DNA of 64,000 bases from an uncultured Candidatus Saccharibacteria bacterium (lineage in GTDB: Bacteria > Patescibacteriota > Saccharimonadia > Saccharimonadales > JAUPVS01): contig CAYPFM010000002.1 in the NCBI GenBank assembly GCA_964410185.1, positions 70,047-134,046 on the forward strand, in the 5' to 3' direction. A program made the translations under genes and the position numbers. Below are positions 6,803-64,000 of this stretch, piece after piece. The notes below the pieces were generated by a model. That model had not been told where the DNA came from. It was given only the letters and a program-made list of their open reading frames with translations, and ran no database searches. Numbering within the stretch: the first letter of the stretch is position 1; each line of letters begins with the position of its first letter.

Positions 6803-6876
6803 CACCGGGCAGTCTGGTCTTGTGAATCGTGCTTATGGTATGATACAAACAATGTAACTAATAAAAGCGAGAAGAT

Positions 6877-7588: not shown

Positions 7589-8683
7589 ATGCAGGAACTC
7601 ATTTCGCAACTGACCAAGCTTCAAGCGGCGATTGTCGAGGCTATCAACACACTCCAGCTCACCAAGGTTGAAGCAACCTTGGCTGAAGTGACTGCCCAGA
7701 TTCAGTCCGCCGACTTCTGGTCCGACCAGGCCAAGGCCCAGTCGACCATGAAGGAACAGGCCCGCTTACAGGCGCAGATCGAGCCCTGGCGCACCTTAGA
7801 ACGGCAAGTCAACGAAGCGCACGAACTGGCCGAACTGCGCGACACCAGCGTCCTGGGCGACCTACAGCAGCAATTTTTAGATCTGCAGGCCCAGTTCGAT
7901 GAGCTCAAGCGCCAGCTTCAGTTTAATGGCCCATATGACAACAACAACGCCATTATGGCCATCCACGCTGGTGCCGGTGGCACCGATGCCCAAGACTGGG
8001 CGCAGATGTTGCTACGTATGTATGTGCGCTGGGCCGAACAGAACAAATTCAAAGTCGAGACCATTCAGCAGTCAGCTGGCGAAGAGGCGGGAATCAAGAG
8101 CGTGACCTTCGAAATTGATGGTCCGTTTGCCTACGGCAAACTGCAGGGTGAACACGGCGTACACCGCTTGGTTCGCCTTAGTCCGTTTAATGCCGATAAT
8201 TTGCGCCAGACGAGTTTTGCTAAGGTCGAGGTGATGCCCAAAATCGACAATCCGGCCAGCCTCGAAATTGACGAAAAAGACCTAAAGATTGACGTCTACC
8301 GTAGTGGTGGCAAGGGTGGGCAGTCGGTCAACACCACTGATTCAGCGGTGCGCATAACCCACCTGCCAACGGGTATTACCGTTGCTATTCAAAATGAACG
8401 ATCTCAGTTGCAAAATAAAGAAACGGCCATGACCATTATTCGTTCGCGCTTGGCGCAACTGCAGCTTGAGCAGCACCAAGAAAAACTGGCCGGTCTCAAG
8501 GGTCCAAATCAGTCGGCGGAGTGGGGGAACCAAATCCGCAGCTACGTCCTGCATCCCTACAAACAAGTCAAAGATTCGCGGAGTCACTACGAAACCACCG
8601 ATGCCGAAGGTGTACTGGATGGCAATCTGACGCCACTGATCGAGGCCTACCTTGAGTCGCAATTTGGCGCCGACAACCAGTAG
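7589..8683 (+). CDS. prfB: peptide chain release factor 2
   Basis: 364 aa. SPF tripeptide (LSPFNA) and GGQ (SGGKGGQSVN). One uninterrupted ORF. Confidence 0.95.
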   Translation: MQELISQLTKLQAAIVEAINTLQLTKVEATLAEVTAQIQSADFWSDQAKAQSTMKEQARLQAQIEPWRTLERQVNEAHELAELRDTSVLGDLQQQFLDLQAQFDELKRQLQFNGPYDNNNAIMAIHAGAGGTDAQDWAQMLLRMYVRWAEQNKFKVETIQQSAGEEAGIKSVTFEIDGPFAYGKLQGEHGVHRLVRLSPFNADNLRQTSFAKVEVMPKIDNPASLEIDEKDLKIDVYRSGGKGGQSVNTTDSAVRITHLPTGITVAIQNERSQLQNKETAMTIIRSRLAQLQLEQHQEKLAGLKGPNQSAEWGNQIRSYVLHPYKQVKDSRSHYETTDAEGVLDGNLTPLIEAYLESQFGADNQ

Positions 8684-34402: not shown

Positions 34403-34431
34403 AATACACCACATGTGTGGTGTATTTTTTT
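34403..34431 (+). terminator. rho-independent terminator
   Basis: AATACACCACA-TG-TGTGGTGTATT followed by a T run. Confidence 0.75.
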
Positions 34432-34445
34432 GCCCATGACACAAC

Positions 34446-34454
34446 TGTGGATAA
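34446..34454 (-). promoter_or_regulatory. perfect DnaA-box 9-mer (TTATCCACA on the minus strand) upstream of the mraZ promoter
   Basis: The + strand reads cTGTGGATAAc. One of four identical CTGTGGATAA 10-mers in the window. Confidence 0.5.
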
Positions 34455-34496
34455 CTTGGGACACTTTCTCTATAAAAGGGAAGAAAAGGGGTTGTA

Positions 34497-34544
34497 GTGG
34501 GTAGCTGTGGGTAGTATATTCAAACCAGTGGGTAAAAGTGGGTA
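34497..34544 (+). promoter_or_regulatory. putative MraZ operator: four direct GTGGGTA repeats (34497, 34507, 34528, 34538)
   Basis: taGTGGGTAgctGTGGGTAgtatattcaaaccaGTGGGTAaaaGTGGGTAag. Spacings are 10/21/10 nt. A TATATT -10 candidate lies between the two pairs. The site is 76 nt upstream of the mraZ start. Confidence 0.7.
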
Positions 34545-34619
34545 AGACAAAAGAGTCTTAGCCATCCACAAAACAAACACACAATTTATCGGTTCAACGA
34601 GAGGAACCTGGGACAATAA

Positions 34620-34970
34620 GTGGATTATTTCGAAAGAAAACTTGACGACAAGCGGAGACTGACTATTCCAGTCGAACTGCGTCACGAATTCTTATCCGGA
34701 GTAGTCGTAACCAGGGGATTTAAGAACTACCTGCATCTGTATCCAAAAGATGTATGGGATCAGTTAGTTGAACCAAAGCTTCAGGGGAATATCCTGGATG
34801 AGCTAACCGCCGATCTAAACGTGCAGTTTAGGATGGGAAAGAGTGATAGCGAGCTCGACCAAAAACAGGGTCGCATCACACTTGAACAGCACTTGCTGGA
34901 CTACGCAGGCATAACCCAAGGGGTTGTTGCAGTCCGAGCTGGACGGTACTGGCGAATCCAAGCCGCTTGA
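34620..34970 (+). CDS. mraZ: transcriptional regulator MraZ (short, two SpoVT/AbrB-like repeats)
   Basis: 116 aa, GTG start. LDDKRRLTIPVELR and LDQKQGRITLEQHLLDYAGI are the duplicated DxxGR motifs. First gene of the dcw cluster. Confidence 0.85.
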   Translation: MDYFERKLDDKRRLTIPVELRHEFLSGVVVTRGFKNYLHLYPKDVWDQLVEPKLQGNILDELTADLNVQFRMGKSDSELDQKQGRITLEQHLLDYAGITQGVVAVRAGRYWRIQAA

Positions 34971-35260
34971 TCATTGTTGTTTGTTGAACCTTAACAAATA
35001 ATTAGCACGAGAAAAAACACTCGAGATTAGCTAATTGATAGTCAACAAGTGATCAAAGGCCCACTATAAAAGGTCTTCGTTCTTTTATCAAAACACCTCC
35101 CAAAACTCCACCTCACACATAAGTCTCTCAAACGGTTATTTAGAAAATGCAAATAGGTCAAACTATTCAAACGTTTTTCAAATAACAGCTACAAAAACAA
35201 AAAGGCTCGAAACAAAAACAAAAAAGTTGGCTATCAATTAGGTGATCTTGCCAAAAACAA

Positions 35261-35279
35261 ACACCAAAACAAAAACAAA
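35261..35279 (+). repeat. A/C-rich 19-mer ACACCAAAACAAAAACAAA, 3 nt before the rsmH ATG
   Basis: An identical 19-mer recurs at 36285-36303 before ftsL. Confidence 0.85.
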
Positions 35280-35282
35280 ACG

Positions 35283-36170
35283 ATGCAGACCGATCAACCA
35301 ACTCAAGACAATCACCATGTTCCGGTGTTGCTCGAAACCGTTCTCCAGTACCTGGCACCACAGTCAGGGGAGACCTACCTGGACCTGACCGCCGGTTACG
35401 GTGGCCACGCCAAAGCGGTCTTGGAGCGGACGGACAACCCACAGGGTGTAACGTTGGTCGATCGTGACCGCCAAGCTGTCGCCGCATTACAGCCCCTCGT
35501 CAAACAGGGTGCTCATATGATTCACAGCGACTTCTTGCACGCTAGCCAACAGCTAGCCGATAGCGGGCACGAGTACGACATGATCTTGGCTGATTTAGGA
35601 GTCTCATCGCCGCACCTTAATAATGGTAGTCGTGGGTTTAGCTTCGTCACCGAAGCTGAATTGGATATGCGGATGGATCAACGCCAAACGCTATCGGCCC
35701 ATAATGTGGTCAACGACTACAGCGAAGCAGAGCTGACCGACATCTTGTGGCGATACGGGGAAGAACCCAAATCGCGGCAAATAGCCCGGTTGATTGTGCG
35801 GAACCGACCGTTCCATACAACCACAGAGCTAGCCAATGTCGTCAAAAAGGCCTGGCCTGGCCATAGTAAAGTGCACCCAGCTACAAGGACCTTTCAAGCA
35901 GTCCGAATCGCCGTTAACGACGAGATCGCGCTACTGGAGAAAGCCTTACCACTGTGGATTAGCTTACTTAAACCAGGTGGTAGACTAGCCGTTATCAGCT
36001 TTCATAGCCTCGAGGATCGGGTCGTCAAACAAATGTTTGCCGAGTACGCCGAAGGGTACGAAGCCAAAATTGAGCTACTTACCAAAAAGCCCGCTACTGC
36101 CAGCGAGCATGAATTAGTTTTTAATCCGCGTGCCAGGAGTGCAAAACTCCGAGCCGCCGCAAAAAAATAA
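35283..36170 (+). CDS. rsmH: 16S rRNA (cytosine1402-N4)-methyltransferase
   Basis: 295 aa. HVPVLL, YLDLTAGYGGH, LADLGVSSPHL, ISFHSLEDR. Confidence 0.93.
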   Translation: MQTDQPTQDNHHVPVLLETVLQYLAPQSGETYLDLTAGYGGHAKAVLERTDNPQGVTLVDRDRQAVAALQPLVKQGAHMIHSDFLHASQQLADSGHEYDMILADLGVSSPHLNNGSRGFSFVTEAELDMRMDQRQTLSAHNVVNDYSEAELTDILWRYGEEPKSRQIARLIVRNRPFHTTTELANVVKKAWPGHSKVHPATRTFQAVRIAVNDEIALLEKALPLWISLLKPGGRLAVISFHSLEDRVVKQMFAEYAEGYEAKIELLTKKPATASEHELVFNPRARSAKLRAAAKK

Positions 36171-36284
36171 ACAGAAAGGGATGCACATGCCTATCCAGGT
36201 CAAAAGCAGCTCCCGAGCGTACAAGGTTAGAGTTAAAGTAATTTAACCACCTTGTAGTGGGGGTCTTGGGCAACCGAGGCTCCC

Positions 36285-36303
36285 ACACCAAAACAAAAAC
36301 AAA
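36285..36303 (+). repeat. second copy of the A/C-rich 19-mer ACACCAAAACAAAAACAAA, 23 nt before the ftsL-like ATG
   Basis: Exact match to 35261-35279. Confidence 0.85.
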
Positions 36304-36326
36304 CATAAAAAGAGAATTAACAATAC

Positions 36327-36674
36327 ATGACATATTCCAGTACTTTGGCAATGAATCGACAGCGATTTGGCCAGCGGAACCAGAATAGTACGAGCTTTCA
36401 GAAGAAGAGCCGTACCATCGGTCCTGTCAGCAACACGATTATTCTGATCGTTCTGGCATGTGTGCTCGGACTGTTGTATCTTACCCAGGTGACCAAGACA
36501 AATGCTTACGGTTACAAGATTAACAACCTACAAGACCAACAGACGCAGCTGAAAGAGCAGCACGACGACCTCGAAGTAGCAGCTGCTCGTTTGAAGGCGC
36601 TTGATCGAGTCCAGGCGAGCGAAGCGGCCAAGAACCTCGTGTCCGTTGCCCCAACCGCCACCGTTCAAAACTAA
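36327..36674 (+). CDS. ftsL: FtsL-like cell-division protein (bitopic, coiled coil)
   Basis: 115 aa. Single TM (IILIVLACVLGLLYL) followed by a coiled coil. Sits in the position between rsmH and ftsI. Confidence 0.6.
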   Translation: MTYSSTLAMNRQRFGQRNQNSTSFQKKSRTIGPVSNTIILIVLACVLGLLYLTQVTKTNAYGYKINNLQDQQTQLKEQHDDLEVAAARLKALDRVQASEAAKNLVSVAPTATVQN

Positions 36675-36683
36675 TTCTTAGCA

Positions 36684-38459
36684 ATGCCCCCACGCACCAA
36701 CTCTATCCCCGGCGGTAATACCGCCGTGCAACGCTTACGTATATGGTATGGCGTTTTTTTGGCTGTGGCGGCTATTTTTGTGTTTCGGGCCTTCTACTTA
36801 CAGGTGATTCGTCAGGACTACTACCATAAATTAGCTTTGGCGAGCCAGCTGAAACAGTACGAAATTCCAGCCGAACGGGGTGTTATTGAGGCCCACGACG
36901 GCGACCAAATCGTGCCCCTGGTACTAAACCAGAAGCAATATACCTTGTTTGCTGACCCCAAGTTCATTAAAGATCCGTCTAAGACAGCCGATCAAGTGGC
37001 TCGCGTCATCGGTGGTAATGCTGCCGACTACGAAAAGCTCATGAAGGCGAACAGCCGCTACTCGGTTTTGGCCAAAAAACTTACCAAAGAGCAGAAAGAG
37101 GCCATTACCAAGCTGGAGATCAAGGGTATCGGCACGCGCGATGTTACGTCGCGCACCTATCCCGAGAGTTCACTGGCGGCGCAGCTCCTGGGCTTTGTGA
37201 ACGATGAAGGGGATGGGAAGTATGGCTTGGAACAAGCCTTGAACCCGCAACTAAAAGGACAACCAGGCGAGCTGAAGGCCATTACTGATGCTCGCGGTAT
37301 CCCGTTAGCCGCCAACAAGGACAATATTGTGAAGGCGCCGGTGGCCGGCAAACGGGTTGTTTTGACGGTTGATATTGCTATGCAAAAACAGCTTGAGGAT
37401 ACGCTGAAGAAGGGGCTGGAACGCGCCAAATCAACCTCTGGTGACGCTGTTATTATCGATCCCAATACGGGCGCGATCTTGGCCATGGCCAGCTACCCAA
37501 CCTACAATCCGGCCGAGTTCTATAAAGTCACGGACGGTAACGTCTTTACGAGTGGTGCCGTGAGCAATCCGCTGGAAATTGGCTCCACCATGAAGCCGTT
37601 AACAGCTGCCGCGGCGCTCGATCAAGGTGTTGTTAAGCGGGACACGACCTATTATGACCCCAGTCACTATTCGGTGGATGGCTATAACATTACTAATATT
37701 GAAGAAGATGGTGGGGCTGGGACACGCTCGGTGGCCGACATTTTGCAGTTGTCACTGAACACCGGTGCGACCTGGCTCCTGATGCAAATGGGTGGCGGAC
37801 AGATTAACCAGAAAGCCCGAATGGCTTGGCACAACTACATGGTTGATCATTATCAGTTTGGCAAGGATACTGGCGTCGAGCAGGGGTATGAATCCCATGG
37901 CACCATTCCTGATCCGAACGACGGATACGGACTCAATTTGCAATACGCCAACACCGCGTTTGGGCAAGGTATGACGGCGACGCCACTACAGCTAGCAGCC
38001 GCCTTGGCTAGTGTGGTAAATGGCGGCACGTACTACAAACCCCACCTGGTGGATGGCTACATGACCGACCACGACGAGTTTAATCAGCAGAAGCCGACGG
38101 TCGTTAAAGCCAATGTCGTCAAGCCGGATGTCGGGCAGACACTCAAAGAGCTGATGCAGTACACCTTCGATAAAAACCATGTCACGTATGGTATGCCGAA
38201 CGTGCCAGCGGGCTATAATCTTGGCGGTAAGACGGGTACGGCTCAAATCGCCAAGCCGGGCGGTGGCTACTATGATGATCGATTTAACGGTACGTTCATG
38301 GGCTTTGTAGGTGGCGATAAGCCACAATACGTGGTGGTCGTACGGGTGAATGAACCAAAGATTGGCGGCTATGCTGGTTCTAAGGCCGCCGCGCCGCTCT
38401 TTTCGGATATTGCTACCTTCTTAATTGGTAATTTTAATGTCACGCCAAAAAGTTCGTAA
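36684..38459 (+). CDS. ftsI: class B penicillin-binding protein (FtsI/PBP2-type transpeptidase)
   Basis: 591 aa. N-terminal TM, STMKP (SxxK), SLN (SxN), KTGTA (KTG). Confidence 0.9.
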   Translation: MPPRTNSIPGGNTAVQRLRIWYGVFLAVAAIFVFRAFYLQVIRQDYYHKLALASQLKQYEIPAERGVIEAHDGDQIVPLVLNQKQYTLFADPKFIKDPSKTADQVARVIGGNAADYEKLMKANSRYSVLAKKLTKEQKEAITKLEIKGIGTRDVTSRTYPESSLAAQLLGFVNDEGDGKYGLEQALNPQLKGQPGELKAITDARGIPLAANKDNIVKAPVAGKRVVLTVDIAMQKQLEDTLKKGLERAKSTSGDAVIIDPNTGAILAMASYPTYNPAEFYKVTDGNVFTSGAVSNPLEIGSTMKPLTAAAALDQGVVKRDTTYYDPSHYSVDGYNITNIEEDGGAGTRSVADILQLSLNTGATWLLMQMGGGQINQKARMAWHNYMVDHYQFGKDTGVEQGYESHGTIPDPNDGYGLNLQYANTAFGQGMTATPLQLAAALASVVNGGTYYKPHLVDGYMTDHDEFNQQKPTVVKANVVKPDVGQTLKELMQYTFDKNHVTYGMPNVPAGYNLGGKTGTAQIAKPGGGYYDDRFNGTFMGFVGGDKPQYVVVVRVNEPKIGGYAGSKAAAPLFSDIATFLIGNFNVTPKSS

Positions 38460-38495
38460 CAGCGGAGGAATAACGTATAATATGAGGAAGAAATC

Positions 38496-39539
38496 ATGTC
38501 GACAATAAACATCACCGTTAACACCGCTACGCTTGTGCGAATCCTCTCGCTCGGCTTTTTGACCTTCTTGATTAGCATGGTGATTACACCGCTGTATACC
38601 AACCTGGCCTTTAAGTGGAAGCTCTGGAAGAAGCCGCGCGAAAAAACCGTCACTGGCGCGCCGACGACGATTATTAGTCAGCTCCACGCCGGCAAGCATA
38701 AACGACTAATTCCAACCATGGCTGGTATTGTCTTTGTGGTTTCGGTCGGGCTAGTGACGATGGCCTTAAACTTGAACCGAAGTGAAACCTGGCTGCCGTT
38801 GGCCGCGTTTGTCGGCGCCGGTTTTGTTGGTCTGATTGATGACATTATTAACGTCCGCGGAACAGGGGCGGGGGTGGCTGGTTTACCGTCTAAGTTGAAG
38901 CTGTTGCTAATTACGGGCATCGCCCTGGTTGGTGGCCTCTTCTTTTATTACAAGCTCGACTTCTCGAGCTTGCACATACCACTGGTGGCCAGTAGTTTCC
39001 ACCTAGGCTGGTTGATTATTCCACTGTTTGTTTTGGTAGTAGTGGCAACCGCCAACGCAGTTAATATTACTGATGGGATGGACGGTTTGGCTGGTGGCCT
39101 GTGTGCGATCGCTTTCTTGATTTACACGATTATTGCCTTCTTAGAAGGTCGCTATGGCGTGGCCGGCTTCTGCATGGCCATGGTCGGTGGTTTGATGAGC
39201 TACACCTGGTTCAACCTGTTTCCGGCACGCTTCTTTATGGGTGATGTTGGTTCGTTCGCACTGGGGACGGCTCTCGGTGTGGTGGCTATGTTAACAAACA
39301 CCGTCTTCTTGCTGCCAATCATTGGCCTGGTCTTTGTGGCCGAAACTGGCTCGGTAATGCTACAGGTTACTTCTAAGAAGTTACGCCACGGCAAGAAGCT
39401 TTTCAAAGTTTCACCGGTGCACTATTTATTCCTAGCTAATGGGTGGCCCGAAACTAAGGTGACAGAGCGCTTTTGGATCATTGGTCAGGTGGCTGGCGTG
39501 ATGGGTCTGATTCTGTTTGTGCTCGGTCGGTGGATTTAA
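38496..39539 (+). CDS. mraY: phospho-N-acetylmuramoyl-pentapeptide transferase
   Basis: 347 aa. NAVNITDGMDGLAGG, FMGDVGS, 10 TM pattern. Confidence 0.93.
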   Translation: MSTINITVNTATLVRILSLGFLTFLISMVITPLYTNLAFKWKLWKKPREKTVTGAPTTIISQLHAGKHKRLIPTMAGIVFVVSVGLVTMALNLNRSETWLPLAAFVGAGFVGLIDDIINVRGTGAGVAGLPSKLKLLLITGIALVGGLFFYYKLDFSSLHIPLVASSFHLGWLIIPLFVLVVVATANAVNITDGMDGLAGGLCAIAFLIYTIIAFLEGRYGVAGFCMAMVGGLMSYTWFNLFPARFFMGDVGSFALGTALGVVAMLTNTVFLLPIIGLVFVAETGSVMLQVTSKKLRHGKKLFKVSPVHYLFLANGWPETKVTERFWIIGQVAGVMGLILFVLGRWI

Positions 39540-39543
39540 ACTT

Positions 39544-40809
39544 ATGAAATTCGCCAGTCCCGTCAGACGGCCGGCAGATCAAGAGGCTTCTCGTCAACGT
39601 CGGCATCGTCCGGACTACTGGCTGCTGCTCATTGCCACGGCGCTTATGGTCATCGGCTTGATTGTGCTGTACGCCATTAGCCCCGGTCTAGCGATTCAAA
39701 AACATGTTGGCGAGAACTACTTCGTGAACAAGCAGCTACTGGCCATTATTCTTGGTATTGCCGCGTTCGTGGCCTTGTCGAACATTCCCGTCGCTTTCTG
39801 GCGAACCATGCAGCGACCGCTGTTAATCGCGGCTGGTGTGGCTGCCGTTGCGGTACGAATCTTTGGTGAGCGCGTCAATGGTGCCTATCGTTGGATCCAG
39901 GTTGGCGGTATGTCTTTTCAGGCCGCCGAGCTAATTAAGTTCGCCTTACTGATTTGGTTAGCTAGTTTTTTGGTTGATCGCATCCGTGAAGGGAACCTTG
40001 GTGACCTCAGAAAAACCCTCCAGCCACTGGTAATCGCGCTGCTATTAATTGGTCTGGTCGTCGGTAAAGTGCAGAGTGACTTTGGTTCGACCGCGGTTAT
40101 GATTGCCATGATGGCTTCGATGGCTTTTGTGGCCGGCATGCCGATGAAGCGGGTCATGATGGCCGGTGGAGTGGTGGCGATCGGCATCATCCTACTGATT
40201 AGCGGCAGCGCCTACCGACGTGACCGGGTGCTGACCTTTATGCACCCGGAACGTGACTGTCAAAACACCGGCTACCAAGTCTGCCAGGCCTTGATAACGG
40301 TTGGTTCGGGCGGCGTCTTTGGTTTGGGCGTGGCTAACAGCGTGCAAGCCTACGGCTACCTACCAGAGGCGGCCAACGACTCCATCTTTGCTATCTTGGC
40401 CGAAAAGTTTGGCTTCCTTGGTGTAACGGCTTTGATCGGCTTGTTCGTGGCATTCTTCCGGCGGCTTTTCAAAATTGCCGAACGCGCACCCGATGACTAC
40501 AGTCGATTACTGGTGGTTGGCATCTTGGCCTGGTTAAGTACCCAAGTACTGATTAACGTTGGCGCCATGATGGGCCTGCTACCTCTTAAGGGGATTACCT
40601 TACCGTTCATCAGTTACGGTGGCACCAGCCTGGTCTTTGTACTGGGCGCCTTGGGCATTGTTTTTCAGATTTCTCGCTACACCGTCTACCGGACGGCGGC
40701 GGTGAGTTCGCAATCAACTAGAGAAGGGAAGGCGTATGAAAGTACTCCTAACCGGCGGCGGAACGGGCGGTCACATAACCCCGTTGTTAGCCGTCGCCCA
40801 GAAGCTTAA
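39544..40809 (+). CDS. ftsW: SEDS family peptidoglycan polymerase FtsW
   Basis: Start at ATG 39544, 5 nt after the mraY stop. 9-10 TM helices, QPAE-like SFQAAELIKF, PLKGITLPFISYGGTS. Confidence 0.88.
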   Translation: MKFASPVRRPADQEASRQRRHRPDYWLLLIATALMVIGLIVLYAISPGLAIQKHVGENYFVNKQLLAIILGIAAFVALSNIPVAFWRTMQRPLLIAAGVAAVAVRIFGERVNGAYRWIQVGGMSFQAAELIKFALLIWLASFLVDRIREGNLGDLRKTLQPLVIALLLIGLVVGKVQSDFGSTAVMIAMMASMAFVAGMPMKRVMMAGGVVAIGIILLISGSAYRRDRVLTFMHPERDCQNTGYQVCQALITVGSGGVFGLGVANSVQAYGYLPEAANDSIFAILAEKFGFLGVTALIGLFVAFFRRLFKIAERAPDDYSRLLVVGILAWLSTQVLINVGAMMGLLPLKGITLPFISYGGTSLVFVLGALGIVFQISRYTVYRTAAVSSQSTREGKAYESTPNRRRNGRSHNPVVSRRPEA

Positions 40810-41887
40810 AGACCTCGATCCCGCGACCGAGATTGTCTACGTTGGCGAACGTGGCACTAAGTTTGCTAGCATGACAGCCGGCGAAAACGCCTTTGATAGC
40901 CAGCACAAGGTCTTTGCCGGTAAGTTTCGGCGTTATAACGGGGAATCGTGGCTCAAGCGATTGCTGGACGTTAAAACCAATCTCCTGAACATTCGCGACT
41001 TCTTCTATCTCTTTATGGGCTTGATTGAAAGCTGGTTCTTGTTACGTCGCGTCAAACCAGATGTCATTTTGCTCAAAGGAGGCTTTGTCGGCGTGCCTAT
41101 TGGCTTAGCCGCCCGCAAACGCATTCCGTTAGTAACACACGACTCCGACGCCTTACCGGGCCTCGCAAACCGTCTGGTGAGCCGCTGGGTGGTCTACCAC
41201 GCCACCGGCATGCCTCCAGAGTACTATCAGTACCCCAAAGACAAGGTGAAGTACGTCGGCGTGATAGTTGGTGATGCCTACCAAAAAGTTACCGCCGAGC
41301 TCCTAAAGCAGTATCGGGATGCCCTTAAGTTACCCGAAGACGCGCAGGTTCTGTTAGTGACTGGTGGCAGCGGTGGCGCAGGTAGCATTAACAGTGCCAT
41401 GGTCCAGCTCGCGCCACAGTTACTCGACAGCTTACCCCAGCTGCACATCATTCATGTGACTGGTAATGGCAAAGAAGGCGTTTATGGTGACTATCAGCAT
41501 CAACGACTCTTGGTAGCCGGTTTATTGAGCGAATTTTATCGCTACACTGGTGCGGCTGATGTGATTGTCACCCGCGCCGGCGCCAATACGATTGCCGAAT
41601 TTGGCGTCCAAGCCAAGGCCTGTGTGGTGGTGCCTAACCCGATGCTGACCGGTGGGCATCAGCTCAAAAATGCCGAATTCTTAGCCGCTCACCAAGCAGC
41701 CGTAATTGTAGACGACGCCACCCTCGGTACCCACCCAGAAGCGCTCAAAGAAGCAGTCAATGATCTGTTAACGGACGCCCAAAAGCGCACGGAGCTTGGC
41801 CAGCGACTCAACGACCTAACCGTCAAGGATGCGGCCAATAGTTTGGCGCAGCTGCTGCTCTCGGTTGGCAAACGGGCAGGGGAGTAG
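40736..41887 (+). CDS. murG: UDP-N-acetylglucosamine--lipid I GlcNAc transferase MurG
   Basis: 383 aa. LLTGGGTGGHITP, GGSGGA, TRAGANTIAE. Overlaps the ftsW 3' end by 74 nt. Confidence 0.92.
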   Translation: MKVLLTGGGTGGHITPLLAVAQKLKDLDPATEIVYVGERGTKFASMTAGENAFDSQHKVFAGKFRRYNGESWLKRLLDVKTNLLNIRDFFYLFMGLIESWFLLRRVKPDVILLKGGFVGVPIGLAARKRIPLVTHDSDALPGLANRLVSRWVVYHATGMPPEYYQYPKDKVKYVGVIVGDAYQKVTAELLKQYRDALKLPEDAQVLLVTGGSGGAGSINSAMVQLAPQLLDSLPQLHIIHVTGNGKEGVYGDYQHQRLLVAGLLSEFYRYTGAADVIVTRAGANTIAEFGVQAKACVVVPNPMLTGGHQLKNAEFLAAHQAAVIVDDATLGTHPEALKEAVNDLLTDAQKRTELGQRLNDLTVKDAANSLAQLLLSVGKRAGE

Positions 41888-41889
41888 AC

Positions 41890-42777
41890 GTGCGAATACG
41901 GCCCACCAAAACCACTCGTCAACCACAACCGACCGCCGCGCCGCGCGGTGTGATTTCGTATAACACCAATCGTGTGGCTGGGGCCGGGAAGGTTGTAAGT
42001 CCCAAGGCCGAACATTGGTGGCAACAGGGGTGGGTAAGAAACCTACCGACGTTTCTGGCACTGGCCGTAATTACCATCAGTGTCTTGTACTGCCTCGGCC
42101 TCTCCACCAATCCAAAAGTTGTCGTATCTACAACAAGTCCACAGGCAGTCGTTTTGCGTGACAAGGCCGAATATCAGCGTGGCGCTCAGCGTATCCTGGA
42201 AGACTCAGCCCTAAGCCGGACCAAGTTCACCGTTAATACCGGTGGTTTTGAACGGGCCTTCCGCGCCGCCTTCCCGGAAGTCGATGATGTTTCCTTGGCG
42301 CTACCGCTGGTGAGTCGGACGCCCATCGTTACGATTAGCACGGCCCAGCCGCAACTACTCCTGACCGCTCAAGGCAAAGTCTATGTGCTCGACAAACGTG
42401 GAACAGCCATCATGATGGCCAATGACCTCAGCTCTTCTATCCGTCAAACCCTCCCCGTGGTTGATGACCAAAGTGGCTTGTCAGTTTCGGTTGGTAAAAC
42501 CGTCCTGCCGGCCGAGCAGATCCAATATATCACCTCTGTTCTGGCCCAGTTTAAGGCCAAGCAAGTGGCTGTCGAAACTATCACGCTCCCGGCCACTGCC
42601 CAAGAGGTAGACATTAAGCCAGCCGGTAAGCCCTACTATGTAAAATTCAGTACCAGCACCGAGGCGAGGGAAGCGGCTGGCGACTACCTGGCTACCAAGC
42701 AGCGCCTTGAACAGACCAACACGACACCAACACAGTATGTCGATGTGCGGGTGCCAGGCCGCGCATACTACCAGTAG
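41890..42777 (+). CDS. ftsQ: cell-division protein FtsQ/DivIB-like
   Basis: 295 aa, GTG start after GGGGAG. N-terminal TM, then POTRA-like and FtsQ-type beta domains. Last gene of the dcw cluster. Confidence 0.65.
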   Translation: MRIRPTKTTRQPQPTAAPRGVISYNTNRVAGAGKVVSPKAEHWWQQGWVRNLPTFLALAVITISVLYCLGLSTNPKVVVSTTSPQAVVLRDKAEYQRGAQRILEDSALSRTKFTVNTGGFERAFRAAFPEVDDVSLALPLVSRTPIVTISTAQPQLLLTAQGKVYVLDKRGTAIMMANDLSSSIRQTLPVVDDQSGLSVSVGKTVLPAEQIQYITSVLAQFKAKQVAVETITLPATAQEVDIKPAGKPYYVKFSTSTEAREAAGDYLATKQRLEQTNTTPTQYVDVRVPGRAYYQ

Positions 42778-42961
42778 TCGCCCCACCACTACTCTCCTAT
42801 GTTCGCAAAGTGTTCACATGTTTGTTTATGTATGATCCAGCAAAAAAACTATACTATGATGGGGAAACGGGCAAATGTCAAAAAAGGCAGGAAAGCGCCC
42901 AAAGCGGGGAAATACATATAAAAGTATAGAAAGGCACGAAAAGCAAATATTGCAAACCGAC

Positions 42962-42970
42962 TGTGGATAA
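42962..42970 (-). promoter_or_regulatory. perfect DnaA box (TTATCCACA on the minus strand)
   Basis: The + strand reads cTGTGGATAAg. Confidence 0.55.
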
Positions 42971-42993
42971 GTCGGGCCGTTGTACAAAATATC

Positions 42994-43002
42994 TGTGGAT
43001 AA
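42994..43002 (-). promoter_or_regulatory. perfect DnaA box (TTATCCACA on the minus strand)
   Basis: The + strand reads cTGTGGATAAa. 32 bp from the previous box, same orientation. Confidence 0.55.
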
Positions 43003-43184
43003 AGCGACGTAGTGGCAAGCCATTCTAAGGGCTTCTGAGAGTGTGTTTGGAGAGGGTTTGAATAGGAACACCAGTTACAATAGAAAGTAGCGCGCAGAAC
43101 GAAGCGAATAGACAAAAACCTTGGTGACTCGAAAATACTTCCCTTTAGCAGGGGTATCACTAATCCTCTTATGTATATAAATAT

Positions 43185-43212
43185 AAGTCGCAAAATATAC
43201 ATTGTGCGACAT
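43185..43212. other. dif-like Xer recombination site candidate (palindromic arms around a 6-bp TGTATA/TATACA core)
   Basis: The minus strand reads ATGTCGCACAA-TGTATA-TTTTGCGACTT. The inner 16 bp CACAATGTATATTTTG match 14/16 to E. coli dif CATAATGTATATTATG. Confidence 0.4.
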
Positions 43213-43414
43213 GATTGCTATGACTGGTTGTGTGTTCTGCTCCGGCTTCTGCCGGCTGGAATTTCTGCCGCTGCTGTTTTTTATTTTGTGTTATTGCGTT
43301 AATTCTCTACTGCTACTGCCCGGGAGCTTTTTTTGGCACTATGTGAGATTGCCTGTTTCCTATTGGCTGTCACTATCGTGTTCGTAATTTGTACAAAGTT
43401 TTTGTGAACAGACT

Positions 43415-44011
43415 TTAGCTGGCTGTGACAGTAGCCCGACTGGCTTGCTGAAGCTCATGGGCTTCGAGTGCTTGTTGGGTGCTTAATGGGTGATGATGAA
43501 GCTCTACGCGGCCACCGTAGATACCTTCCCCTGCACTATCCATACGAAGTGTTAATGGACGATCGTAGGTGCCTTCGGGTACGTCAGTGTGGGCCGCAGC
43601 GTCGGTCAGTCCGTGGATGCTAAAAACACCTTCATCAAAGCTAATCTCACCGTTCCGAAAAGAAAACGCCTCACTACTAAAGGTGACCGCGACTAACTCC
43701 GTATCAACAGGGGTCCAACCAGGGTTGCCGTCACTGACCTTACCTTGTTCGAACGGGTTCACATACTGTCGAAACGGTCGTGGGGTTGGGTTGCCACGGA
43801 CGCGTAAGGAGCTTTTCCACTCTCTGTCGTCGGCTACTTGGCGGTTGTCGAGGCTGAAGCCATAGAAAGCACCGCTGGCGACATTACCGAGTTGAAGGGT
43901 TGGCTGCGACTCCTGGGCAAGGATTTTGCCAAGGAAACCGGCGAGCTCGGGCGAGGGCACCTTGATTCTTAGTAAGTAATCAACAAAGTGGTGCTTCAAA
44001 TCCATAGCCAA
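43415..44011 (-). CDS. hypothetical protein (shares a short xGEG(I/L)Y segment with 46803..47201)
   Basis: 198 aa. No recognisable domain. LTLRMDSAGEGIYGG resembles IEMRLEDS...SDTGEGLYIADG in the 132-aa protein. Confidence 0.5.
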   Translation of the reverse strand: MAMDLKHHFVDYLLRIKVPSPELAGFLGKILAQESQPTLQLGNVASGAFYGFSLDNRQVADDREWKSSLRVRGNPTPRPFRQYVNPFEQGKVSDGNPGWTPVDTELVAVTFSSEAFSFRNGEISFDEGVFSIHGLTDAAAHTDVPEGTYDRPLTLRMDSAGEGIYGGRVELHHHPLSTQQALEAHELQQASRATVTAS

Positions 44012-44079
44012 TACCCCAATTCTAAATTTAGGATAAGTATAATCCTCTGCTTTTCTTTTGTCTAGGATTGGCAGCTACG

Positions 44080-44658
44080 TTAGTAGATTGGTTCAATGTC
44101 GACCAGATGGAGGGCTGGAACCGATGGCCTGGCTGCGCCCCGAAGTCGGCCAAAGATGTATTGGTCGATGCGGCCGATGTCCCGCAGTGGGGATCGGCTA
44201 TGATGAGGGCGGTTTTTGGTGTAGGCCTTAATTTTGCGACCACAGTCTTGCATCATAACTCGTTCCTCAGGCGAAGCCTTTGCCCAGACGGGCTCAATGC
44301 CATAGCCCTCAACGACGGCTACTCGAGCAAGCGTTCGATAATGAGGCGTGCCTTCTGCTTGGAAGGTGTACCATTCGGTCGGTGCGACACTAATACCAGC
44401 GGCGCGGAGGAGCTGGAACTCGTTGTTCGTCTGTTCTAGCAGGGCCTCAATTCCTTCGAGGCTACACGGCGCCGCAACATGCCTTGGGGACTCTCGGAGG
44501 CGGACTTCTCGAACGATGTGACTAAAGCCATCACTAACTTGGGCTTGCATGGCCTCCCGCCTATCCAGCCAAGACTCTTCTCCTTGTACTTCAAACCAGA
44601 CAATCGGCTGATTGGGCCAGGGGGCGCCAACTTCTGCAACCGTGGCTGGTAAATTCAC
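44080..44658 (-). CDS. hypothetical protein, paralog of the core of 45913..46758 (possible kinase-like fold)
   Basis: 192 aa, GTG start. Shared motifs with the 281-aa protein: G-I-x-V-A-P, D-[IV]-x3-D-Q-Y-I, L-V-D. Confidence 0.5.
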   Translation of the reverse strand: MNLPATVAEVGAPWPNQPIVWFEVQGEESWLDRREAMQAQVSDGFSHIVREVRLRESPRHVAAPCSLEGIEALLEQTNNEFQLLRAAGISVAPTEWYTFQAEGTPHYRTLARVAVVEGYGIEPVWAKASPEERVMMQDCGRKIKAYTKNRPHHSRSPLRDIGRIDQYIFGRLRGAARPSVPALHLVDIEPIY

Positions 44659-44665
44659 GGCTTCT

Positions 44666-45700
44666 CTATTCGGCTAGAGCGTAGGTAGCTTTGGCGACGC
44701 GCTTGAACTGGGCTTTGCCCTGCAGGTTCAAAAGGATGGTCGTTTCTTTAACGTGACGGCTTTTAAGGACGCGCTTGACGATTTCATCGCGGTGGAGGGG
44801 TTCGCCTGCCTTTTGGAGGACTTCGGTGATGATATCGGCCACAGTGCCCTTCTCGTAGCCCCATTCCTTTAAGGCGTAGATGCCGCGGCCAATCAGAACG
44901 AAGCGACTATCTTTGATCAGTTCGTTGTGGATGGCTTGGGTGGTGACATCTTTGCGCTTGAATTCACTGCCCTTGATGGCTTCGGAAATCTCATTAAAGT
45001 GGAGGGGCTTCCCTTTTTCGTAAAGAATGACGTAGATTTTGTCACGAATGTTCTTGGGGTTGACCATTGGCCACTTCACTAGGCCCCAGCGACCGTTAAG
45101 GGTGGCTAATTGCTTAGAGGTGCTAGCCAAGGCGGCAACGTGCTTGCTGTCGGTGTCTTTAACAGAGGTGGCAACCTTGTCGATAGAAGTTGGTTCCCCG
45201 CCCTTTTTGATGGCGTCGATAATCTTGGCAACCTGATCTTTCATCTGTTTTTCGGTGTGGAGCTTGGCCAAACCGACAGCGTGGTAGAAGTTGTCGTTTT
45301 CGTCGATAACAGCCAGGTTTGGGCACAGTAAGGTCAGAAAAGCGACGCGGGCTTGGTCGGTGCGGCTGTTGTCTTTGGTGAGCTTGGCACTGAGGTCGCT
45401 GACGCGGCTGACGCCACCCAGTTGCTCAAGTTCGGTTACGAAACGAGCCTGTAGCTCTTTGATGTGTGGCAGGTCCTGTTCAGCGGTACTCTTGAGGCGT
45501 GTGATAACAGCTTTTTCGAGTTGGCGAACGCGTTCGCGTGTGATGCCAAGGAGTTCCCCAATCTGTTCTAGGGTTTCTTTTCGTTCAAACAGGCCAAAAC
45601 GGCGCGCAATGATTTCGCGTTCTCGTTCACGCTCGATAGTTGCTAGAACATCATTAATAATCTGTTCAATATCGAGTGTGGTCGGGGTTTGGTCTGCCAT
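44666..45700 (-). CDS. sigma-70 region-4-like HTH protein with repeated HARE-HTH (RpoE/delta N-terminal-like) domains
   Basis: EIIARRFGLFERKETLEQIGELLGITRERVRQLEKAVITRLK is region 4. I see no region 2. The C-terminal half has 2-3 HARE-HTH-like units (GKPLHFNEISEAI...GRGIYALKEW; GEPLHRDEIVKRV...ATYALA). ATG 45700 is preceded by AAGGAA; the ORF could also start at TTG 45751. Confidence 0.6.
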   Translation of the reverse strand: MADQTPTTLDIEQIINDVLATIEREREREIIARRFGLFERKETLEQIGELLGITRERVRQLEKAVITRLKSTAEQDLPHIKELQARFVTELEQLGGVSRVSDLSAKLTKDNSRTDQARVAFLTLLCPNLAVIDENDNFYHAVGLAKLHTEKQMKDQVAKIIDAIKKGGEPTSIDKVATSVKDTDSKHVAALASTSKQLATLNGRWGLVKWPMVNPKNIRDKIYVILYEKGKPLHFNEISEAIKGSEFKRKDVTTQAIHNELIKDSRFVLIGRGIYALKEWGYEKGTVADIITEVLQKAGEPLHRDEIVKRVLKSRHVKETTILLNLQGKAQFKRVAKATYALAE

Positions 45701-45759
45701 ATCGTATTCCTTGTCTGTTAAGTCATCGGGCGCCCACTCTGCCGTCAACAATTACTAAC

Positions 45760-45788
45760 ATTATAAAACTTTAATTATTAAAAGTCAA
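45760..45788 (-). promoter_or_regulatory. promoter TTGACT-N17-TATAAT for the sigma-r4/HARE-HTH gene
   Basis: The minus strand reads TTGACTtttaataattaaagtttTATAATgttagtaaTTG. Confidence 0.6.
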
Positions 45789-45912
45789 ACGTATGTCTTT
45801 ATGTAGTTATTGTAGCACCAACTGGACTATCGTGCGTGACTATTGCGTGGCAATATTACAACAAAATAGTCTGAACAGATAGCAAGTTGGGGATAAGTTG
45901 GTGGCTTGTTGA

Positions 45913-57878: not shown

Positions 57879-57953
57879 GGTCTCTTCGTCTAACGGTTAG
57901 GACACCAGGTTCTCATCCTGGCAATACGGGTTCGATTCCCGTAGAGATCACCA
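57879..57953 (+). tRNA. tRNA-Glu (anticodon CUC), CCA encoded
   Basis: GGTCTCT-TC-GTCT..AGGAC-A-CCAGG-TTCTCAT-CCTGG-CAAT-ACGGG-TTCGATT-CCCGT-AGAGATC-A-CCA. The D arm resembles E. coli tRNA-Glu (TTCGTCTA...AGGACAC). Confidence 0.9.
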
Positions 57954-59326: not shown

Positions 59327-59349
59327 TAACCATTAGTGTAATCCGTCTC

Positions 59350-59358
59350 TGTGGATAA
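59350..59358 (-). promoter_or_regulatory. perfect DnaA-box 9-mer (TTATCCACA on the minus strand) upstream of 59425
   Basis: The + strand reads cTGTGGATAAg. Fourth copy of the CTGTGGATAA 10-mer. Confidence 0.45.
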
Positions 59359-59424
59359 GCAAACTGCTTGTGTTATTGACAACGAGTGGTTTTCAGCTGA
59401 TAAGCCGCTTAGATAAGGAAAAAT

Positions 59425-61805: not shown

Positions 61806-62483
61806 ATGCTTTCTTCATTTAAGAACCTGCGTGAATTCTTTCGCTCGCCGCTGGTGTGGTTTGGCTTGCTGGCGGCCTTGTTATACAGCTCCTGGCCGCT
61901 AGGCTTCTGGCTCGATCGGCCGGTGGCCTATCACTCATTAGCGAGTGAGCTGGAAGCCCCCCACCGTCCCTACAACTGGCTGTTTATTAGCATGGATGTG
62001 CTGACTGGTCTGGTTTTAGCGGGAATTGGCATCTGGCAAGCACGCAAGCGGCCCGTCCAGGTGCCGGGTATTATCATCTGGAGTTATGTCTTGTTTGGGC
62101 TTTTGGTGGCAGTTGCTGCCCTGACTCCCCTAGTGTGCGATCCCACCACTCAAAGTTGCGGGCCACTTATTCATAACTACCGGCTATTGGTGCATGGTAT
62201 CGCCAGCATTAGTTCAGTCTTTTTCCTACTGGCCGCCCTGATTGGAGTGACGCACCGGGCGCACAAACATCATAAGACCAGTTATGTGGCGATTGGCTTG
62301 AGCGTATTATTGGTTGGTTGGCTGGTTTTTGGGGTTGGCTCATTGTTGCAAATACTGCTGCACACACATAGCGGTAATAGTATGCAAGACTTCTTTATTA
62401 GTCTGTGTAGCCTAACGATTATTGCCGTGGTAGCTAACGTGGAGTGGCATCGGCTGGCGCCGCTTCGGGACGAAGAGGTTTAA
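61806..62483 (+). CDS. polytopic membrane protein (unknown function)
   Basis: 225 aa, 6 TM helices. The 3' end overlaps the convergent umuC 3' end by 50 nt. Confidence 0.5.
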   Translation: MLSSFKNLREFFRSPLVWFGLLAALLYSSWPLGFWLDRPVAYHSLASELEAPHRPYNWLFISMDVLTGLVLAGIGIWQARKRPVQVPGIIIWSYVLFGLLVAVAALTPLVCDPTTQSCGPLIHNYRLLVHGIASISSVFFLLAALIGVTHRAHKHHKTSYVAIGLSVLLVGWLVFGVGSLLQILLHTHSGNSMQDFFISLCSLTIIAVVANVEWHRLAPLRDEEV

Positions 62484-63756
62484 CGGTCGGCAACTCGTCC
62501 CAACGGGTGGTGTAGCGTGGGCTGCGTAGCATCCGTTTGGGCTGCCAGGCCTGCGCCAGGTCTTCGGCGGCATACCGAACCGTGTTCTTGCCAAAACGGT
62601 CATTAAGGGCATCGAGCGCGGCCGAGCGGGCCTGTCGTTGGCTGTGTTTGGCCGGATCAACTTCGCCCAACAAGTCGGTTTGCAGTTGGTGGTCGGGCAC
62701 GAAGTCGGATAGCCAGACGCCGGCGCGGTGATAGTCGGCCTGTTTGTCGTAAATCTTATTGAAGGCACCGACGACGGCGGCGATGAGTTGGCCGGTGTCG
62801 GCCGTGGGCATGTTAAAGAGCACTTCACTGCTCCAAGTGCGGTAATTGGGTTTATGACGACTACTGTTGAGGAAGATGGCCGCCCGTCGAGCTAGCTGGT
62901 GACTGCCGCGCAACCGATAGGCCGCCTGGGTGGCAAAACTGGCCAGGGCGGCCTCGATGACGTGGGCTTGGTTGGTGTCTTCGCCAAAGGTGCGTCCGCG
63001 CGAGATGGTTTGATGGGGCTTGCCGAGGCGCTCCAAAGGAATGCAACTGGTGCCATTGAGCTCCAGAACCATCTGTTCGCCGTGGACTCCCAGCAGTTGC
63101 CTGGCCCGGGCTGGTCGTAGTTGCGACAAGACGGCGGCGTTAATGACGCCTTCGGCCTGCAACTGTGGGGCCAGCTTGCGTCCAACCCCCCAAACAGAGC
63201 GGATCGGCACTTGCGCCAAGGTGGCCAGCCGCTCTTCGGCAGACATGTGATAAATATCACACACTCCCCTGTTAGCCGGTACTAATTTACCGACATCGGT
63301 GGCAATTTTGCTAAGCGTTTTGCTACCAGCAATACCAATTGATACGGGAATGCCAATCTCCTTCCAGACCTGCTCGCGCAAAACCCGCGCCCAAGCTGAA
63401 AAGTCCTTAATTTCAAGTTCGGAGAGGTCGAGGAAGGACTCGTCGACGGAATAGACCTCGATACGTGGTGTCACCCGGGTGAGAATTTCGGTTAAACGTC
63501 GGGAGATATCGCCATATAGTTCGAAGTTGGCCGAGAACGACACCACCCCATTATCTTTAAACAGCTGACGGTATTTAAAGGCGGGTGCTCCCATCGGGAT
63601 GCCGAGGGCTTTGGCCTCGGCCGAACGCGAGACGGCGCAGCCATCATTGCTGGACAAAACCACCACTGGCCGGGTGGCCAGCCCCGGCCGGAACAACCGT
63701 TCGCAGCTGACGAAGAAGTTATTGCAATCGACTAAGGCAAAGATGGGCTGTTTCAT
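62434..63756 (-). CDS. umuC: Y-family translesion DNA polymerase, UmuC-like
   Basis: Start at ATG 63756 (MKQPIFALVDCNNFFVSCERLFRP). SNDGCAVSRS, VWGVGRK, C-terminal SPRYTTRWDELP. Confidence 0.88.
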   Translation of the reverse strand: MKQPIFALVDCNNFFVSCERLFRPGLATRPVVVLSSNDGCAVSRSAEAKALGIPMGAPAFKYRQLFKDNGVVSFSANFELYGDISRRLTEILTRVTPRIEVYSVDESFLDLSELEIKDFSAWARVLREQVWKEIGIPVSIGIAGSKTLSKIATDVGKLVPANRGVCDIYHMSAEERLATLAQVPIRSVWGVGRKLAPQLQAEGVINAAVLSQLRPARARQLLGVHGEQMVLELNGTSCIPLERLGKPHQTISRGRTFGEDTNQAHVIEAALASFATQAAYRLRGSHQLARRAAIFLNSSRHKPNYRTWSSEVLFNMPTADTGQLIAAVVGAFNKIYDKQADYHRAGVWLSDFVPDHQLQTDLLGEVDPAKHSQRQARSAALDALNDRFGKNTVRYAAEDLAQAWQPKRMLRSPRYTTRWDELPTVKPLRPEAAPADATPR

Positions 63757-64000
63757 GGGCGGTACTGGTGTATTACGGCCGTCACGGTGCCCCACAGCGT
63801 GCTTTCGGCGGGTAGCTTGGTAAACGGCGTGATAATGAACTCATCGTCCTTGGTGGCCACCACCATGTCGCTTTTACGTGGGGTAAGTGACCGGTCAATT
63901 ACTACAACGTCGTTGGCAAAGATTGACCGCTCCTCCCAATCATTCCCTTCTATGCGCATGAAGAATGTGCTGGTGGGCTGTTTGATGAGCAGTCGATGTA
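63753..64000 (-). CDS. UmuD/LexA-S24-like protein, 5' end outside the window; Ser-Lys dyad positions substituted
   Basis: The open frame runs to the window edge (..HRLLIKQPTSTFFMRIEGNDWEERSIFANDVVVIDRSL...EFIITPF...). It aligns with UmuD [19 protein letters not shown]...GEFTVKKL. ATGA overlap with umuC. Confidence 0.7.
   Translation of the reverse strand, partial: HRLLIKQPTSTFFMRIEGNDWEERSIFANDVVVIDRSLTPRKSDMVVATKDDEFIITPFTKLPAESTLWGTVTAVIHQYRP

Follow-up and report, generated by a model that had tools for sequence, protein, structure and literature searches.

The stretch of DNA analyzed in this study, referred to as the window, comprises 64,000 nucleotides (nt) from an uncultured Candidatus Saccharibacteria bacterium (contig CAYPFM010000002.1). 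It carries a division and cell-wall (dcw) operon together with four perfect copies of a 10-mer, CTGTGGATAA, that contains a DnaA box. One copy lies upstream of the operon, two lie as a pair behind its last gene and the fourth lies upstream of a gene for a peptidoglycan (PG)-binding protein of 623 amino acids (aa). The positions of these features are as follows.

34620-42777, + strand: dcw operon with mraZ, rsmH, an ftsL-like gene, the gene of a penicillin-binding protein (pbp), mraY, ftsW, murG and an ftsQ-like gene (Pfam matches)
34445-34454, + strand: DnaA-box 10-mer upstream of mraZ and the dcw promoter, exact match (TTATCCACAG on the - strand)
42961-42970, + strand: DnaA box 1 of the pair, exact match
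42993-43002, + strand: DnaA box 2 of the pair, exact match, 32 bp after box 1 and in direct orientation
59349-59358, + strand: fourth perfect box; a TTGACA hexamer (59376-59381) follows after 17 nt and the start codon (ATG) of the gene for the 623-aa PG_binding_1 protein after 66 nt

The order of the dcw genes was the same in all the related loci that were compared.

Occurrence of the DnaA-box 10-mer

All four copies of CTGTGGATAA are on the + strand and fall outside real genes (4/4), so that the first-pass annotation, in which they had been described as intergenic and of one orientation, was exact. Its estimate of about 0.1 copies by chance was also reproduced, since dinucleotide-preserving shuffles gave an expected count of 0.10 and none of the 100 shuffles reached four copies. 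The paired boxes overlap only an antisense open reading frame (ORF) of 117 aa (42849-43202), in which relatives show non-triplet indels. When one mismatch was allowed in the 9-mer, 13 sites were observed in the window while 11.4 were expected, which is the level of chance, and the signal is therefore specific to the perfect DnaA-box consensus. As had been annotated, no dnaA gene was found among the window ORFs scanned against Pfam, which included all those of at least 328 aa while several shorter ones were left unscanned. The gene was absent from the fetched related loci too, and no dnaN was found near the non-coding region that holds the pair.

The related loci were taken from species-representative genomes (L002, L004), from metagenomes of the Joint Genome Institute (L010-L016) and from contigs with homologues of the FtsQ-like protein (L106-L117), whose source names include Candidatus Saccharibacteria, Saccharimonadales and Patescibacteria group. 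Among the species-representative genomes there were just two syntenic metagenome-assembled genomes, both distant (MurG 36-38% identical). The guanine plus cytosine (G+C) content of the related loci ranged from 35 to 52% and the identity of their FtsQ-like proteins from 24% to about 64%. The box behind the operon and the palindrome that accompanies it (see below) were scored in all 17 loci, the full ordered motifs were judged in the loci covering the whole region, and the sequence upstream of mraZ was covered by nine related loci.

The motif might simply have been common, also inside genes. In 297 kb of the relatives (15 non-redundant loci, with a non-coding fraction of 0.17), 24/25 perfect 9-mers were non-coding, the sole one within a gene being that at L119 5028. 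A reading of the repeats as compositional over-representation or chance, devoid of function, can point to this one copy and to a window of only 64 kb. Against it stand the shuffles, the lack of enrichment of one-mismatch variants and the conservation of position, orientation and spacing described below, which extends over G+C contents of 35-52% and protein identities down to 24-40%. By this positional conservation chance is effectively refuted, and the data support a functional motif that would be selectively maintained as a DnaA-box-type site.

The mraZ box and the putative promoter of the dcw operon

Two further features were recognized between the upstream gene and mraZ.

34403-34431, + strand: intrinsic terminator of the upstream gene, ACACCAC-atgt-GTGGTGT plus a T-run (scanner call), directly 5' of the mraZ box
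34492-34544, + strand: putative mra promoter (P_mra), with a -35 hexamer TTGTAG (34492-34497), a spacer of 17 nt and a -10 hexamer TATATT (34515-34520)

A perfect TGTGGATAA was present in the same orientation upstream of mraZ in 9/9 related loci covering the region, with FtsQ-like proteins 24-40% identical and G+C contents of 35-52%. The distance from the end of the box to the putative -35 hexamer was 37-38 nt in all nine, seven of which have a perfect copy at that spacing. In L002 and L004 the 38-nt position is taken by TGTGTATAA and the perfect copy lies 40 bp further upstream. The putative P_mra of the relatives is made up of a conserved TTGnnG hexamer, 17 nt and TA(T/G)(A/T)(T/C)T. In L012 and L013 the same terminator hairpin is found 3' of the box, whereas in the window it precedes the box, which indicates that the constraint is on the distance from box to promoter.

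Four GTGGGTA repeats extend over the putative P_mra, at 34497, 34507, 34528 and 34538 (spacing of 10, 21 and 10 bp), and they are kept in all relatives. Repeats of the GTGG type are the operator of MraZ in other bacteria (bioRxiv 10.1101/2022.02.09.479790), and the stretch at 34492-34544 was therefore read as P_mra plus operator. With GTGG cores about 10 bp apart overlapping P_mra, the array has the features expected of an MraZ operator. The DnaA-box sites do not share them, the variant TGTGTATAA of L002 and L004 having no GTGG. The centre of the mraZ box would be placed near position -77 of the inferred transcription start, and it lies 50-51 bp (about five helical turns) from the first MraZ repeat, roughly on the same face.

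The first gene of the dcw operon has, in its putative promoter region, a DnaA-box sequence that is conserved among relatives. According to the passages on this operon in PMC2533591 and bioRxiv 10.1101/2022.02.09.479790, yllB(ftsL) of Bacillus subtilis is negatively regulated by DnaA bound at its promoter. These same passages, referring to Goranov et al. (2005), place a DnaA-box site upstream of the first gene of yllB(mraZ)-ylxA-ftsL-pbpB, beside MraZ repeats, as in the window, and both cases offer a link between replication status and division. The case described here differs in that there is one perfect box (two in some relatives) at a strict 37-38 nt from the putative -35, in that the phylum is Patescibacteria and in that the binding of DnaA is predicted from sequence. 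The annotation had considered that single boxes could place division genes under the control of DnaA, and for the mraZ box, given its occurrence in 9/9 loci at 37-38 nt and the precedent of B. subtilis (PMC2533591), this is plausible. The box very plausibly puts the division and cell-wall operon under predicted DnaA control.

In addition, a motif (C/T)(A/C)TCCACAAAA was conserved at 34561-34572 and in the equivalent positions of L106, L112, L116 and L109, about 45-55 nt downstream of the -10 of the putative P_mra. It is partly like an inverted DnaA box (TCATCCACA in L116).

The protein predicted to bind the box

The classical consensus of the DnaA box has the relaxed form TTWTNCACA, in which positions 3 (W) and 5 (N) are degenerate. 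In all four window copies and in 25 copies in the related loci the 9-mer equals the DnaA consensus TTATCCACA, and the orthologous sites read only TTATCCACA, TTTTCCACA (changed at position 3) or TTATACACA (changed at position 5). Variants confined to these two degenerate positions fit DnaA.

Another protein could recognize CTGTGGAWAAGT, the identity with the DnaA box being coincidental. The candidates are MraZ, the protein with sigma70_r4 and HARE-HTH domains that is encoded near the pair, or an unknown factor. GTGGATA and the MraZ repeat GTGGGTA are one base apart. The spacing amounts to about 50 bp (five turns) between the mraZ box and the first repeat, and to 32-33 bp (three turns) within the pair. 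Moreover, the sigma70_r4/HARE-HTH gene is always syntenic with the region of the pair and has a box or near-box upstream in three loci, and the flanks of the 9-mer are also fairly conserved (C before it and GT after it). Nevertheless, the 25 copies agree with the DnaA consensus at 9/9 positions and the only variants are those that DnaA tolerates, a pattern which argues against a different regulator. With respect to MraZ, the promoter-proximal TGTGTATAA of L002 and L004, which corresponds to the TTATACACA variant, destroys the GTGG core, the operator repeats are consistently GTGGGTA and never GTGGATA, and repeats and boxes never interconvert across relatives. With respect to the HARE-HTH protein, most loci have no box upstream of its own gene, and those that do occur there are sporadic and on differing strands. 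We consider it unlikely that the site belongs to a protein other than DnaA.

The paired boxes and the conserved non-coding module

The ftsQ-like gene is followed on its 3' side by a non-coding gap of 637 bp and then by a run of - strand genes. Alignments with the related loci defined this gap as a conserved module, with these elements besides the pair.

42778-43414, no strand: conserved non-coding module, which fills the gap from the ftsQ-like gene to the convergent genes of the - strand
42801-42815, + strand: GTTC-N7-GTTC direct repeat no. 1 (GTTCGCAAAGTGTTC), right after the ftsQ stop codon and at the same place in relatives
43141-43154, + strand: small inverted repeat CCCT-N6-AGGG(G), at 33 nt to the left of the palindrome; most loci have it as CCCCT-N4-6-AGGGG, and no covariation was seen
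43187-43210, no strand: dif/Xer-type site, GTCGCAAAA TATACA TTGTGCGAC, a 9-6-9 imperfect palindrome of 24 nt (GTCGCAAAATATACATTGTGCGAC)
43380-43394, + strand: GTTC-N7-GT[T/A]C direct repeat no. 2 (GTTCGTAATTTGTAC), which closes the module on the right and is kept in relatives

The order of the motifs in the module is GTTC-N7-GTTC repeat, A-tract followed by CTATA, GTCAAA, purine-rich block and box or boxes, and then a variable spacer, the inverted repeat CCCCT...AGGGG, the 24-nt palindrome, a T-rich stretch and the second GTTC-N7-GT[T/A]C. TGTGGA[T/A]AA was found at the position of the module box, orthologous to box 1, in 17/17 loci and always on the dcw strand, about 140-230 nt left of the palindrome (184-216 nt for the pair in the window). 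A pair with a spacing of 32-33 bp was present in seven loci of the clade of the window, the relatives being L106, L109, L111, L112, L116 and L117. It is perfect in L106, L112, L116 and L117 and consists of TGTGGAAAA twice in L109 and L111. More distant relatives have one box at this position, not two.

No relevant Rfam family was found in the module at gathering or at permissive thresholds. A leftward TTGACA-17-CATAGT was called in the window, and TTGAC[T/A] hexamers are conserved on the - strand. In L011, at 3049-3136, and in L012, which has the same sequence, the spacer between box and palindrome contains a perfect inverted repeat about 30 bp long, with a minimum free energy (MFE) z-score of about -7 and nothing comparable in other lineages.

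GTTC-N7-GTTC is the direct-repeat motif of alphaproteobacterial LexA (PMC8565304). With 2 occurrences in the window where 2.3 were expected, the pattern was not enriched, and a reading of the repeats as LexA boxes was set aside. They may represent an operator of the SOS response or of a phage repressor. In L016, GTTCGTA-N4-GTTC repeats with a period of 11 bp, sometimes of three units, lie beside inserted elements (8161, 14535, 14583 and 15638). One of them stands directly before the ribosome-binding site and ORF of a prophage. The spacer of the motif resembles a -10 hexamer (TAAAAT).

It had also been suggested that the pair could be a DnaA-titrating element. It would then be a locus for DnaA titration or inactivation comparable to datA or to the DnaA-box clusters (DBCs), without a transcriptional role, and owing to its place at the terminus its copy number would double only at the end of replication. 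The high-affinity consensus boxes on the same helical face (32-33 bp), a conserved A-tract and GTCAAA block that could provide a bend of the integration host factor (IHF) or HU type, and a module in which no controlled promoter, ORF or RNA was found are in keeping with this, and clusters of DnaA boxes outside oriC are known in B. subtilis (PMC2533591). Like the pair, the B. subtilis DBCs and the datA and DnaA-reactivating sequences (DARS) of Escherichia coli are intergenic consensus boxes away from the origin and conserved among relatives. However, the known clusters consist of three to more than five boxes, near the origin or in mid-replichore, and datA and DARS2 need IHF sites, whereas here there are one or two boxes about 200 bp from dif at the terminus. 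These numbers are far below those of datA or of the B. subtilis clusters, where stable binding needs density (PMC2533591), and distant relatives hold one box. The three or more close boxes of such clusters were not reached in any case (two boxes, 32-33 bp apart, at most), and no IHF consensus was identified in the module. We regard a dedicated titration locus as rather improbable.

The palindrome as a dif/Xer site

The palindrome of the module occurs once in the window and once in each related locus, save for prophage hybrids, and is nearly invariant over G+C contents of 35-52%. In L016 a prophage of 6386 bp is bounded by GTCGCAAAA-TATACA-ATGTGCGAC (7958-7981) and GTCAGCTAG-TATACA-TTGTGCGAC (14344-14367). 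In L048, a contig of the IMG/VR database, the order is ftsQ, GTTC repeat, a box 202 nt left of the full site, an inovirus-like prophage of 5.5 kb, a hybrid site and, 187 nt on, a second GTTC repeat; the two copies of the site are at 1327-1350 and 6836-6859. Both prophages encode a rolling-circle initiator and a Zot or Zot-like protein, and no integrase was recognized in either. A full site flanks each prophage at one end and a hybrid site at the other, and the two have the centre and the right arm in common. Full copies of the site were present in about 24 IMG/VR contigs. Filamentous phages integrate at dif through the Xer recombinases of the host (PMC5666396; PMC7307601), and integrase-less prophages with hybrid copies are the signature of such integration. 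By its palindromic arms, its single copy and its use as the attachment site of integrative mobile elements exploiting Xer (IMEX), the palindrome is a dif/Xer-type site.

In another class of viral contigs (L021, L051, L058, L059, L070, L071, L086 and L088), TTGTGCGAC forms a direct repeat, TTGTGCGAC-N2-TTGAC-N9-TATACA-TTGTGCGAC, and not a palindrome. Some of them have GTTC-N7-GTTC about 330 nt downstream.

As in the known XerCD/dif and IMEX systems (CTXphi, XacF1 and other filamentous phages; PMC5666396; PMC7307601), the site of the window is a single-copy imperfect palindrome with a 6-bp centre, it is located where gene orientation converges and it hosts integrase-less inovirus-like prophages with hybrid copies. 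It differs from known dif sites in its nearly symmetrical arms (GTCGCA[A/C]AA), which suggest a single Xer recombinase or two very similar ones. It also differs from known dif regions in lying inside a conserved module of about 600 bp with a DnaA box and GTTC-N7-GTTC repeats, both of which are absent from those regions. On the other strand the centre reads TGTATA, as in dif of E. coli. Direct similarity to dif of E. coli or B. subtilis was discarded as evidence because its score was not above that of shuffled controls.

The - strand run to the right of the module comprises two ORFs without family, the sigma70_r4/HARE-HTH gene, topA, dprA, pth, der, rluB, a response regulator and a histidine kinase. 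In every locus the genes converge on the site. Pooled over the loci, the + strand holds 91/95 of the genes to its left and the - strand 54/61 of those to its right. Convergent genes fit a terminus and are incompatible with an origin. The gene strings are strongly co-oriented, with about 93% of the genes pointing the same way on either side of the module. In the window and related loci, 4-fold-degenerate sites of the coding strand are rich in C and in T, with a GC4 skew of about -0.13 to -0.38.

These observations decide on the proposal, also made in the first-pass annotation, that the pair belongs to an oriC-type element. The module would then be oriC or a secondary origin, where DnaA would assemble on the boxes and open AAAAAAACTATACTA, an A/T-rich stretch lying about 100 bp to their left. 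It shares with an oriC the perfect DnaA boxes in direct orientation and a long conserved non-coding region. It holds a conserved A-tract or AT-rich block as well, and the skew at 4-fold-degenerate sites is compatible with this proposal. On the other hand, there are only one or two boxes, one in distant relatives, where several would be expected. No AT-rich element adjoins them (the nearest is at about 100 bp), and no A-centred trinucleotide repeats (DnaA-trios) were seen beside them by eye. The genes do not diverge near dnaA-dnaN, neither of which was found among the scanned window ORFs; they converge, and an origin at this point would make replication run head-on into about 90% of them, the dcw operon and topA among them. 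Finally, the same spacer contains the Xer/dif-type site of integrase-less filamentous prophages, 184-216 nt from the boxes. The proposal is very improbable and was abandoned, and the paired boxes are terminus-proximal.

The left half of the module, box or boxes included, might instead be accessory sequence of the Xer/dif site, like cer or psi, on which a bound protein shapes the synapse or the integration of prophages. This agrees with conserved non-coding sequence on one side of the core only, within about 400 bp, with an order of motifs that is conserved in all loci and with prophage insertions that leave the left half intact and attached to the full site. Nonetheless, the distance from box to core varies by about 90 bp and is unphased, and the same box is found at P_mra, 8.5 kb away, with no recombination site. 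Chromosomal dif normally needs no accessory sequences for XerCD and FtsK, which counts against this explanation too. We deem it quite improbable and rank plain DnaA-dependent regulation or titration above it as the role of the dif-proximal box.

Proposed function of the conserved boxes

We consider it probable that the 10-mers are genuine DnaA-box-type sites that act outside the origin, two ancient positions of which bracket the dcw operon. That DnaA is the binder, and the direction in which it would regulate, we infer from the motif and its surroundings. At the mraZ box, DnaA would most likely modulate transcription of mraZ-rsmH-ftsL-pbp-mraY-ftsW-murG-ftsQ from about 77 bp upstream of the inferred start and might couple division to replication status, as reported for yllB-ftsL of B. 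subtilis. At the dif-proximal box, a pair in the clade of the window, DnaA would act at the replication terminus and would probably be regulatory, architectural or titrating. Possible roles are a weak titration site or sensor at the terminus, the control of a leftward transcript, architecture in the neighbourhood of dif or a roadblock where the operon ends. The box at 59349 would be a younger, lineage-specific copy before the gene of a PG-binding surface protein.

Several points weigh against this reading. The counts of conserved sites across loci are largely orthologous and so do not represent independent events. A generic promoter scanner gave no call at the hexamers of P_mra, which is an inference from sequence. 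In B. subtilis, single or double boxes bind DnaA weakly in vivo and stable binding needs dense clusters (PMC2533591). For the dif-proximal box no firm conserved promoter was found, the -10 partners being poor or variable. The module contains no conserved small ORF, since its indels are not multiples of three, and structured RNA between box and dif received inconsistent MFE z-scores in 14 loci (from +1.3 to -7.9, mostly near 0). The distance from box to dif (141-229 nt, box end to site) is not in helical phase, and a variable, unphased distance speaks against a rigid nucleoprotein architecture with Xer. As regards the terminus, no replication-strand signal was detected at 4-fold-degenerate sites, where gene orientation dominates (beta -0.21) and the effect of side is 0.017 ± 0.042. 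The likeness of the palindrome to dif of E. coli is 18/28 (16/18 in the core), the best in the window, with shuffled sequences reaching 17-20. Skew and dif similarity thus lend no support, and the assignment of the terminus rests on gene orientation and prophage junctions.

The literature searched on DnaA boxes beside dif, or on oriC and dif of Saccharibacteria, yielded no relevant description. As far as it shows, a conserved DnaA box beside dif is an undescribed arrangement of extra-origin DnaA-box elements. We put forward only tentatively that Saccharibacteria have a conserved docking site for DnaA immediately next to dif, where the division operon ends, which would tie the initiator to the closing stages of the cell cycle. 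Such a docking site could be a DnaA sink or sensor at the terminus whose state changes only upon replication of the terminus, an accessory of Xer dimer resolution or of prophage integration, or a regulator of a transcript back into ftsQ. If this were true, then together with the fixed box at P_mra it would place initiator sites on both sides of the dcw operon, in a bacterium with a minimal genome and without most known cell-cycle regulators. Patescibacteria have tiny genomes with few recognizable cell-cycle regulators, and a box whose distance from the dcw promoter is constant throughout the Saccharibacteria lineage suggests that the initiator itself may time division. The second box, beside dif, would be an unreported location of the initiator and a testable handle on the coupling of replication, termination, dimer resolution and division. 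Some epibiotic Saccharibacteria have been reported to be cultivable and genetically tractable. Additionally, the definition of a dif site of Saccharibacteria, with filamentous prophages integrated there, helps the annotation of prophages and termini in genomes of the Candidate Phyla Radiation.

Other copies of the box and neighbouring genes

The box at 59349 appears to be lineage-specific. The promoter scanner gave no call near it, and no box was consistently conserved upstream of PG_binding_1 homologues, the nearest of which are distant (37-40% identical). The control of the 623-aa PG-binding gene by DnaA, an extension of the same annotation to envelope genes, is therefore weak and seems doubtful.

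A one-mismatch copy of the box was also listed upstream of the sigma70_r4/HARE-HTH gene. It exists, at a position slightly different from the 45884 given before.

45888-45896, + strand: one-mismatch copy of the box, reading TGGGGATAA (TTATCCCCA) and located upstream of the sigma70_r4/HARE-HTH gene

TTATCCCCA at 45888 breaks the relaxed TTWTNCACA, and most relatives lack it. In L014 and L016 the corresponding spacer contains perfect boxes, which point in opposite directions. The copy at 45888 is probably non-functional. The sigma70_r4/HARE-HTH gene (44666-45751, - strand), which is always syntenic with topA, has a conserved promoter TTGACT-17-TATAAT at 45752-45800, and this shows that the lineage uses canonical sigma-70 hexamers.

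Between the module and this gene, the ORFs (43415-44658 in the window, - strand) differ from locus to locus. Neither they nor their equivalents at L013 11453-12652, L015 3057-3854 and L106 11437-12955 had a match in Pfam or PHROG. This variable islet adjoining dif possibly consists of remnants of integrated elements. An IS1595 transposase was found further along in L106. A lone tRNA-Glu(CTC) is located at 57879-57953, between - strand genes, and the end of the window is occupied by the gene of a UmuC-type translesion polymerase (IMS, DUF4113) at 62434-63795, on the - strand.

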